Shown here piece after piece: positions 24,954 through 29,999 of a DNA stretch of 41,555 nt (positions are counted from its first letter, which is position 1; every line of letters begins with the position of its first letter). Source of the stretch: a virus (lineage: Duplodnaviria; Caudoviricetes); IMG/VR virus record IMGVR_UViG_3300020382_000151, positions 1 to 41,555 of that record, one strand, 5' to 3'. The notes under the pieces are model-generated. The model was not told where the DNA came from. It ran no database searches and saw only the letters and a program-made list of their open reading frames with translations. The translations under genes and the position numbers were made by a program.

Positions 24954-24982
24954 TTGACAAAATTAAGTAAGTAGTTTATAAT
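24954..24982 (+). promoter_or_regulatory. Consensus sigma70 promoter for the late sigma factor gene
   Basis: TTGACA (24954-24959), 17-bp spacer, TATAAT (24977-24982). Confidence 0.88.
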
Positions 24983-28931: not shown

Positions 28932-29360
28932 ATGCAATGGACTTACGAAGGATTAACAGTAGACGAATTACCAGTAGACTGTGAAGGCTTTGTATATCTA
29001 ATTACAAATCTTACAAACAATCGTAAGTACATAGGCAAGAAGTTAGCTAGATTTAAAACTACTAAGCCACCACTCAAAGGCAGAAAAAATAAAAGGCGCG
29101 GCACTAAAGAAAGTGATTGGAGAACCTATTGGGGTTCATCAGATAACTTAAATGCAGATGTCGCTACACTAGGCACAGACAAATTTACTAGAGAAATATT
29201 ACATTATTGTCCTAGTAGAGGCGTACTAAGTTACATAGAAGCGAAAGAACAATTTGATCGCAGAGTACTTGAAACAGAAGAATACTATAATGGTATTATT
29301 AATGTTAGAGTAGGCGGTTCAAAAATTCTTACAGAGCACTTCAAAAATACTCCACTTTAG
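28932..29360 (+). CDS. Single-domain GIY-YIG family endonuclease (142 aa)
   Basis: GFVYLITNLTNNRKYIGKK (GIY-YIG), YWGSS, catalytic-type Glu in LSYIEAKEQF, C-terminal YYNG. Confidence 0.88.
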   Translation: MQWTYEGLTVDELPVDCEGFVYLITNLTNNRKYIGKKLARFKTTKPPLKGRKNKRRGTKESDWRTYWGSSDNLNADVATLGTDKFTREILHYCPSRGVLSYIEAKEQFDRRVLETEEYYNGIINVRVGGSKILTEHFKNTPL

Positions 29361-29371
29361 GCAACTATCGA

Positions 29372-29400
29372 TTGACAGCTACACTAGAACATACTATAAT
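29372..29400 (+). promoter_or_regulatory. Perfect consensus sigma70 promoter firing into the non-coding region
   Basis: TTGACA (29372-29377), 17-bp spacer, TATAAT (29395-29400); no credible plus-strand ORF until 30048. Confidence 0.9.
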
Positions 29401-29406
29401 AATAAC

Positions 29407-29870
29407 ATAGGCAAAGTTAGCGTAGGCGCTCCTCGAGCAACAGGCATCCACAGGCAAATCATTCCAACACATAAGGTTAGCGGGCCAGACTATTTAATGC
29501 CGCTGTGGAAAAAGCTACCGTATAGGAGCACACGTACATATTGATCGACTACCCAGAGGTAGGAAGCCACCAAACAAATTGGGCTCACAGGTTGATATAG
29601 ATTGCATGTTGGCAGTCGGAAAACACAATATAGTTCATAAAAACCCTTTAGCACTAGGAACGAAGCGAGGGAATATTGTTACATATAATGTACATTGTAT
29701 ATTATAAGCAACATAATGTCGACGGAGGATGGGAAAGGTCAGAGCCCATTGAACTTGTGTATAAAAAATTACCTCTTTCCAAGTCTTGGCTGTGGCGGAC
29801 TCACATGAAGTTATCCAGAAAGACGACGGGACTAGAAATAGTTCCGTCTGACTAAACAATCTACATGAAA
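29407..29870 (+). ncRNA. Putative large structured non-coding RNA (family not recognised; 3' end uncertain)
   Basis: Has its own promoter, local GC enrichment and many helices. These include GACGGGACTA-GAAA-TAGTTCCGTC (29825-29848, G-U pair plus GNRA loop), CTACC-CAGA-GGTAG (29549-29562) and long-range TGGGCTC/GAGCCCA (29580-86/29742-48). Confidence 0.65.
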
Positions 29871-29876
29871 TTAAAA

Positions 29877-29999
29877 CATTAATACATTCGTATTAATGCA
29901 ATATAATAATATTATCACACTTAATTGCTTATACAAAACGAAGTATAGTTAGTTAGAGCGTTAGCGATAACTTGTATTAACGAAGTTAATACACTAACT
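29877..29999. repeat. AT-rich cluster of inverted repeats/hairpins
   Basis: CATTAATAC-attc-GTATTAATG (29877-29898); TATAC/GTATA (29930-29947); TGTATTAAC-GAA-GTTAATACA (29973-29993); AGTTAG/CTAACT (29947-52/29994-99). Confidence 0.8.

Follow-up and report, generated by a model that had tools for sequence, protein, structure and literature searches.

The window analysed here, a 41,555-nt stretch of viral DNA, contains on its + strand, at positions 29463-29871, a conserved multi-pseudoknot RNA of approximately 410 nt (type A1), and covariation among 81 homologs identifies it as a real new RNA family. From comparison of the sequences, we consider it rather probable that this RNA serves as an R-loop pre-primer at a phage origin, in the manner of ColE1 RNA II. 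An earlier note on this DNA, made from the single sequence, had suspected an undescribed large structured RNA, and this is supported by the absence of a matching Rfam family, by the covariation and by a literature search. A replication pre-primer was the last of the alternatives named there, and it now appears to be the one that fits best.

Genomic context

The 41.5-kb window comes from a large marine phage and, judged by its gene content, is T4-like. Baseplate genes are followed by the late sigma gene, SbcD, SbcC, a 64-aa ORF, the GIY-YIG gene, the gap that holds the RNA and a variable gene, beyond which lie a small ORF together with the baseplate hub on the - strand and then the portal and capsid genes. 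The capsid protein is 66-70% identical to those of cultured jumbo phages of 350-470 kb (such as Serratia BF, fHe-Yen9, Vibrio 2.275.O and Phosso). No tRNA or tmRNA gene was found in the window. The GIY-YIG gene (28932-29360, + strand) encodes a stand-alone SegE-type protein of 142 aa (Pfam PF19835, SegE_GIY-YIG, E 2.8e-34, residues 3-123), in which Pfam recognises no further domain, in agreement with its earlier description as minimal; no PDB homologs were found. The family is named 'NAD synthetase' in PHROG 447 and in many GenBank records, which looks like a mis-annotation. The gap measures 687 nt and, as had been stated, contains no credible ORF, all of its ORFs being 74 aa or shorter.

Conserved fold

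Taken alone, the sequence folds just about two standard deviations better than its shuffles (z -2.06 on the + strand and -1.75 on the - strand), and the comparison of homologs was therefore relied upon. Homologs were drawn from 80 of 595 GIY-YIG loci and from at least 120 loci for each of two RNA motifs (estimated to occur in approximately 920 and 540 stretches). Reduction of the 95 complete type A1 copies left 81, which have a mean identity of 0.74, and 115 of 422 alignment columns are near-invariant (at least 97% conserved). Changes on the tree were scored for coupling between the two sides of each helix, the background having a mean of 0.20 and a 99th percentile of 0.67.

The 5' strand of the first pseudoknot, PK1 (29464-29469), forms 6 bp with the loop at 29607-29612; it is paired in 100% of the homologs, and 14 of the 14 possible tree changes are coupled (fraction 1.0). 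The 5' domain (29479-29617) is made up of helices 29479-83/29500-04, 29505-07/29531-33 (coupled fraction 1.0), 29514-16/29527-29 (0.9), 29538-46/29590-98 (0.9 for 29538-44/29592-98) and 29600-04/29613-17, and it is swapped for a shorter domain in type A2. In the core (29623-29790), helices 29623-27/29756-60 (0.75) and 29632-37/29750-55 (0.92) are crossed by 29718-22/29786-90, which is maintained through wobble alone with 0 coupled changes, and by 29724-29/29771-76 (0.75). The core also holds hairpins at 29644-71 (0.75 for 29644-47/29668-71) and 29730-48 and a length-variable stem near 29674-29715, all on the + strand and placed by the covariation alignment. Four other helices have coupled fractions of 0.5-0.57, and one helix is without coupled change. 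The last hairpin (29825-34/29839-48, within 29825-29853) has a nearly invariant 3' strand. PK3, the pairing of 29847-53 with the loop 29737-43, is tentative: it is 99% paired with 0 compensatory changes and is not clearly kept in small phages. Among 5534 cells, G-U combinations greatly outnumber A-C ones (511 vs 40), so that the folded strand is the + strand, as had been proposed.

Several helices read earlier from the single sequence reappear in this alignment. GATTG/CAGTC of the proposed GATTGC/GCAGTC helix, CCCT/AGGG (29644-71) and the long-range pairing ACACA..AGTTCA/TGAACT..TGTGT all covary in the 81 homologs, and AGCGG/CCGCT, for which pairing reaches 99%, has a single compensating position. 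Covariation is also seen for CTACC/GGTAG, but this helix belongs to a subdomain that is optional; pairing stands at 91% in the stem at 29825-48, but nearly all change in it is one-sided and its GAAA loop is not conserved. Others were not confirmed: the AU-rich stem at 29684-706 varies in length (spacing 12-89 nt), the GCTC/GAGC helix (29428-38) lies upstream of the conserved RNA, and four of the five proposed long-range helices are without covariation. These are TGGGCTC/GAGCCCA, GCCAC/GTGGC, GGAAAG/CTTTCC and TAGATTG/CAATCTA, with 0, 0, 0 and 2 coupled changes (fraction 0-0.14, background 0.20), the GGAA/TTCC core of the third being invariant and thus beyond covariation testing. PK1 (29464-69/29607-12), helix 29538-46/29590-98 and the DNA-hairpin flank at 29938-29993 are absent from the earlier note. 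In many type A RNAs (L006, L015, L040, L087 and L093) the variable stem contains GCGAAGC and GCG-NNA-GC mini-hairpins that resemble those of the flank.

Types of the RNA and novelty

Other RNA types occupy the same position, namely A2, with its shorter 5' domain, and B and C, which have different cores and show covariation of their own in 34 and 27 sequences, respectively. A further variant, read by eye, is found at this position in L017, L019, L020 and L056. All types share the same 3' end, consisting of repeat 1, a hairpin, a TGAC-like motif and repeat 2. As the profile similarity of type A to types B and C is not significant, we infer their common origin from position and build.

The Rfam check suggested earlier returned no family at the gathering score, the sole hit at E up to 10 being a chance snoRNA match outside the element. 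With blastn, cultured phages were searched for all three types and plasmids (PLSDB) for types A and B, and the matches were either none or due to chance. The parts of the literature that were searched contain no description of the family, and four diagnostic motifs had 0 matches in six of the supplementary files of PMC10690425; others of that paper, files 1, 2 and 4, may list it. A tRNA or tmRNA identity was rejected since none was found, and RNase P, HDV and box C/D identities were dropped after comparison by eye. A group I or group II intron or an HDV-like ribozyme was likewise rejected: there was no Rfam hit, the flanking genes are whole, the downstream gene varies and no core motif was seen by eye. 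The three GTDB hits (L358-L360) are jumbo-phage contigs of 73-335 kb within bacterial MAGs and at most candidate prophages.

The two repeats

The recurrence of ACATGAA on both sides of the last hairpin, at 29803-09 and 29863-69, was pointed out in the earlier note and has become the key feature of the element. Repeat 1 (29800-29811, + strand) reads CT, a bulged C29802, ACATGAA and GT, and is the predicted seed for the template DNA strand of repeat 2; repeat 2 (29861-29871, + strand) reads CT, ACATGAA and AT, and is the predicted DNA capture site. Throughout the family, repeat 1 has one additional base, usually C, ahead of the core. When the A, B and C loci are dereplicated to 138, the two repeats agree in their 7-mer in 136, and 25 different 7-mers are in use. 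For the scoring, 132 of 141 type A loci had fixed anchors, and the registers of types B and C came from a best-identity search; the same B and C pairs were recovered from plain alignments. On a tree built without the repeat columns, 19 of 20 parsimony changes of the repeats are coupled, against a background of 0.20.

Mismatches between the repeats are one-sided. At positions 1-9 the transition mismatches (repeat 1/repeat 2) are G/A 89, A/G 0, T/C 21 and C/T 0, counts that are inflated by shared ancestry and by the near-constant G at position 8 of repeat 1. Position 9 is therefore the cleaner test, and there C/C occurs 43 times, C/T 0 times (8.7 expected), T/C 21 times and T/T 22 times. From position 10, C/T mismatches reappear. 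In a metagenome set of 120 loci, which probably overlaps the viral one, 96 of the 102 scorable loci have identical repeats and the 6 mismatches are all G/A. This one-sidedness is expected if the RNA of repeat 1 pairs with the template DNA of repeat 2, as rG-dT and rU-dG are tolerated, whereas twin protein sites or a shared third partner would be expected to give symmetric mismatches. From these sequence patterns we infer that the RNA of repeat 1 binds the template strand of the DNA at repeat 2; an antisense RNA would yield the identical mismatch pattern. A third site complementary to both repeats at a shared position was not found: an exact complement is present in 10 of 138 loci, and 5 of these are the palindromic repeat itself. 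Nor did pairing between the linkers ahead of the two repeats give a clean signal in type A.

The DNA-hairpin flank

Repeat 2 is followed by an AT-rich inverted repeat (29877-29898), which in many homologs is a c(GNA)g hairpin of the - strand; such a - strand hairpin lies 120-400 nt past the core motif in 40 of 91 loci. Loops of the c(GNA)g kind are stable in DNA. Further on, motif conservation delineates a flank (29938-29993, + strand) composed of ACGAAGT, GAGCGTTAGCGA (29956-67) and a 9-bp c(GAA)g hairpin (29973-93), which is predicted to act as a single-strand DNA signal for the loading of primase or helicase. Of 91 type A loci, 79 have the motif GAGYG-N2-4-RCGA 120-400 nt past the core motif, vs 0 occurrences in a control stretch. 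The distance from repeat 2 to the start of the motif is 39-105 nt in 53 of 63 loci of type A and 15 of 22 of type B, but only in 4 of 18 of type C. The c(GNA)g hairpins with stems of 8-10 bp are confined to the flank in the window and in the sequences G002-G006; G001 is without any.

A search with the flank only led back to the RNA, since type A or B RNA lies upstream in 100 of 105 informative hits, and the repeat pair is present in 98 of the 100 RNA-bearing hits vs 6 of 71 controls. The flank motif also occurs once in the 6646-bp ColE1 record (NC_001371), at 1332, which may be the primosome assembly site, approximately 140 nt past the origin. No literature source was found for a consensus of primosome sites.

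Promoter and transcription

The perfect sigma-70 consensus TTGACA-17-TATAAT claimed earlier is indeed found at 29372-29400 (+ strand), 11 nt past the GIY-YIG stop, and is one of two perfect matches in the window. By its sequence it is likely to be where the RNA starts in the phage of the window, and it is lineage-specific: a match of at least 11/12 precedes the RNA in just 3 of 44 loci, and a sigma-70 promoter was therefore rejected as a conserved feature of the family. The earlier placement of the RNA start near 29407 gives way to a conserved 5' end at approximately 29463. The TAA within the 5' motif of the RNA is the GIY-YIG stop codon in 23 of 38 loci. Promoter-like sites are also present on the - strand of the window, and GGCA repeats upstream of the RNA show little excess over the control (40 of 44 vs 38 of 44 loci). 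RNA-library contigs, from 8 of 20 metatranscriptome runs, span the RNA and its neighbours alike, and as contigs they cannot reveal ends, strand or level.

The second perfect TTGACA-TATAAT of the window, at 24954, lies just upstream of the late sigma gene, where gene direction diverges. Short tandem repeats are seen between the upstream stop and the RNA in L017, L073, L238 and L212, made of 14-mer CACAGACACCAAGT units or of GGCATACAC units. Jumbo and small phages alike can have, directly ahead of the RNA, a small ORF showing the pattern G-K-(Y/H)-x-G ... YL-x-W (upstream of it in L097, L102, L105 and L082; L650:1100-1327; L663:3531-3728). Its product is possibly an accessory protein, and the two copies scanned had no Pfam match.

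Small siphovirus-like phages

A second lineage, of small siphovirus-like phages, carries the RNA without a GIY-YIG gene (24 of 28 pattern hits), and in 23 of these 24 loci terS lies downstream. The type A profile matches five small-phage genomes with E values of 1e-10 to 1e-44. These five RNA-bearing siphoviruses have a unit of 27-34 kb (CheckV 89-100%), one of them, G013, being a partial concatemer. A sixth genome, G012, is complete and has an element of like build that is not a significant profile match to type A.

The small genomes contain mostly virion genes, and among the ORFs scanned there was no Pfam or PHROG match to a polymerase, primase, helicase, initiator or integrase. In G012, 40 of 46 ORFs were scanned with PHROGs and 8 with Pfam; in G013-G017, 42 selected non-structural ORFs were scanned with both, the others having been called structural by eye. 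Small ORFs without an assigned function could act as initiators. One example is a recurring protein of 140-160 aa with two HTH-like repeats, encoded near the RNA in small phages (L357:5494-5928; also L128 and G013-G017), which is possibly a regulator or an initiator. Possibly, too, the small siphoviruses are satellites of jumbo phages. The hexamer TAARTA is frequent ahead of ORF starts in the small phages G012-G017, loci L650-L664 (29 of 203, vs 2 of 109 inside ORFs), and in G006 it precedes 92 of 346 ORF starts vs 12 of 234 inside ORFs.

Cultured relatives

Phages BF, 121Q and Phosso have gene-free gaps of 800-1000 nt between gp46 and the baseplate hub, and no GIY-YIG gene is annotated there in BF and 121Q. 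Vibrio phage 2.275.O and Atu_ph07 have no gap at the corresponding position. In BF and 121Q the gap is built of a bulged repeat, a hairpin, a repeat and a GNA flank, and for the BF gap 62 records of cultured phages contain homologs. Across an alignment of 18 copies, repeat 1 reads ATC or ACC, a bulged A, one base, CGTCA and G or A, and repeat 2 reads the same minus the bulge. Both variable letters agree between the repeats in 18 of 18 copies. The base that follows the bulge differs in 8 of the 18, and 7 of these mismatches are not wobbles.

Diverged, co-oriented non-coding elements of 500-800 nt recur along both genomes, at 30.3, 93.0, 174.4, 258.9 and 335.4 kb in BF and at 90.3, 192.9, 247.6 and 326.7 kb in 121Q. 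Their spacing is more even than that of random points (CV 0.17, P 0.001 for BF; CV 0.26, P 0.026 for 121Q), the two genomes being related to each other. These copies are candidates for multiple origins. Searches of marine jumbo contigs with five profiles revealed one copy each and no additional ones. RNase HI is encoded by BF and 121Q, and the gap of Phosso has an annotated RNase HI gene immediately behind it; RNase H (PF00075) had no match on G001, G002 or the 335-kb phage contig.

The syntenic gap of PA5oct has paralogs at 12.9 and 246 kb, the latter being ncRNA004. According to the available part of its description, this transcript spans 246116-246734 (+) and makes up 0.08, 0.03 and 0.02% of phage reads (PMC7318152). 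A TTGACA promoter-like site precedes it, and its annotated 3' end lies approximately 50 nt before the flank hairpin. A clear repeat pair was not found in the PA5oct or Phosso gaps. There was no Rfam match for the BF and 121Q elements, and profile homology of types A-C to the elements of BF, 121Q, PA5oct and Phosso is not significant (best E 0.04), so that the link between them rests on position and build.

Proposed function and alternatives

As a pre-primer, the RNA would be transcribed from the sigma-70 promoter in the phage of the window and elsewhere by read-through from the upstream gene, and its co-transcriptional folding would keep repeat 1 unpaired. During passage of the polymerase over repeat 2, some 60 nt later, repeat 1 would form a hybrid of approximately 11 bp, one base being bulged, with the template strand there, a contact that would resemble the rG/dC contact of ColE1. 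The RNA would remain hybridised with the non-template strand displaced, priming of the leading strand would proceed from the 3' end of the RNA, generated either by termination or by a cut of the RNase H type, and primase or helicase would be loaded at the GNA hairpins that become exposed 40-105 nt beyond. In five partial contigs, the window and the 335-kb contig, GC skew tracks the gene strand and leaves no origin mark at the RNA, and the main gene-direction divergence nearby lies approximately 4.5 kb upstream of the RNA, not at it. The skew, being explained by gene strand, was set aside as an origin signal and gives no support for an origin.

The absence of a skew signal would also suit an R-loop with the RNA's own template DNA that serves some other end: it might stop transcription where convergent operons meet, act as a hot spot of recombination for gp46/47 and resolvases, or mark the start of packaging. 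Such a role would explain the repeats just as well, and it agrees with neighbours such as SbcCD, GIY-YIG and EndoVII or resolvase and with the small terminase gene downstream in 23 of 24 small-phage loci. For packaging the distances are awkward, as the element is approximately 14 kb from terS in G012 and terL is approximately 66 kb away in G006. More generally, these roles would leave the small phages without visible means of replication and the ColE1-like flank motif unexplained, and we regard them as unlikely.

Still more doubtful is a trans-acting or catalytic RNA, either a ribozyme or an oligomer like GOLLD, ROOL or phi29 pRNA, in which the repeats would be twin protein or docking sites. 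The complex fold, the 115 near-invariant columns and the conserved bulged base would suit it, and twin sites for a dimer would likewise stay identical. Yet twin sites predict symmetric mismatches where one-sided ones are observed, a fixed DNA-hairpin flank follows the RNA, no Rfam ribozyme or large RNA matched, and ncRNA004 of PA5oct accounts for just 0.02-0.08% of phage reads in the available part of the source (PMC7318152).

Beyond the pre-primer reading itself, a wider scheme may be outlined, which we offer tentatively and would not yet call probable. The family may represent initiator RNAs of a class that is modular and widespread among phages and has a seed open to reprogramming. In these RNAs repeat 1 would clamp the template strand and possibly the loop 29737-43 the other strand, so that the duplex would be opened and replication begun with no need of an initiator protein. 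One to five copies would serve as the origins of a jumbo phage, types being swapped in the way of the incompatibility groups of plasmids, and the small siphoviruses that lack replication genes would carry the same RNA to borrow the replisome of the host or of a jumbo helper. The seed would be free to change as long as both repeat copies match. RNA-built origins of such complexity are known mainly from ColE1 plasmids, and the literature found, as far as available, does not address the replication start sites of jumbo phages of the GAP32/121Q/PA5oct group. If the pre-primer reading is correct, it would provide a comparative-genomic signature of an RNA that pairs with its own template DNA, name candidate origins in cultured E. 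coli phages and explain how small marine siphoviruses without recognisable replication genes could be copied.

Relation to the GIY-YIG gene

Among type A loci, the GIY-YIG gene is found upstream of the RNA in 69 of the 71 viral ones and in 51 of the 54 from metagenomes. A FastTree phylogeny of 154 GIY-YIG proteins requires 15 or more switches of RNA type, where the minimum is 3 and shuffles give 69; a vertical signal is therefore present as well. Proteins that are 89% identical carry type A or type B RNA, and type A spans protein identities down to 46%. In some loci ORFs are inserted between the gene and the RNA, and in L258 the arrangement is inverted. Phage Melnitz has a GIY-YIG protein that is 81% identical, yet the gap behind the gene is only 149 nt; a different conserved intergenic sequence of approximately 150 nt stands behind the GIY-YIG gene in Melnitz-like phages (L064, L071, L076, L078 and L080). 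Among 53 informative GIY-YIG loci, RNA of types A-C is present in 25 of the 43 that adjoin SbcC and in 0 of the 10 others, and 15 of the 43 have no such RNA within 3 kb. The protein family occurs in 787 phage records of a collection in which the RNA has no blastn match.

Independent distribution, which the earlier note had named as evidence against a partnership, was thus found, and the GIY-YIG gene is the usual syntenic upstream neighbour of the RNA in jumbo phages and no required partner. A role of the RNA as partner or guide of this minimal nuclease, as proposed earlier, would suit the adjacency, the shared TAA stop and the lack of an extra recognised domain. It is very improbable, however, given the RNA standing alone in 24 of 24 small-phage loci, the type switches, the insertions and the inversion, the wide range of proteins behind one RNA type, the many records with the protein family only, and the absence of any visible variable guide segment.

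Comparison with known systems

Structured RNAs that touch a nuclease ORF are known from HEARO and omegaRNA with HNH, IscB or TnpB proteins. The phage RNA differs from these in that it and the nuclease are independently distributed, and neither a guide segment nor transposon ends were seen. With GOLLD and ROOL, as far as the available descriptions go, it shares large size, multiple pseudoknots and, in their case, frequent occurrence in prophages; it differs in having no Rfam match and no tRNA gene in the window, and a DNA flank and a repeat pair are not among the features given for them in those descriptions. ARRPOF, GEBRO and PAGEV are described, in the available part of the source, as structured motifs averaging 223-349 nt in plasmid regions tied to replication (PMC5737381). 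These are plasmid-borne, unlike the phage RNA, which matches no Rfam family.

The T4 origins oriF and oriG need a middle promoter and an unwinding element and form a persistent hybrid, according to the part of the review available (PMC4412123). The likeness here is that of a T4-like phage with its own replisome and a promoter followed by an AT-rich stretch, but the T4 origins as described there are without a conserved folded RNA or a repeat pair. In ColE1 RNA II, the same part of that source relates, an upstream RNA stretch pairs through rG/dC with the template strand of a later identical stretch (PMC4412123). In the ColE1 record a G6 run occurs twice, a hairpin preceding the second occurrence, and a GAGCG-N-AGCGA motif occurs once further downstream. 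ColE1 replication is not known to need a Rep protein. The type A profile found nothing in the ColE1 record NC_001371 at E up to 10, and the phage RNA, with its several pseudoknots, has no sequence homology to RNA II. Its seed is a mixed, variable 7-9-mer with a bulge, the two copies being approximately 60 nt apart, in contrast to G6 and approximately 250 nt in ColE1. What the two appear to have in common is a long folded RNA in which an earlier stretch can pair with the template DNA of a later, identical one, as judged for the phage repeats by comparison, from their identity covariation and one-sided wobbles. By analogy, then, the new family probably works most like ColE1 RNA II, yet by sequence it does not belong to the ColE1 type.
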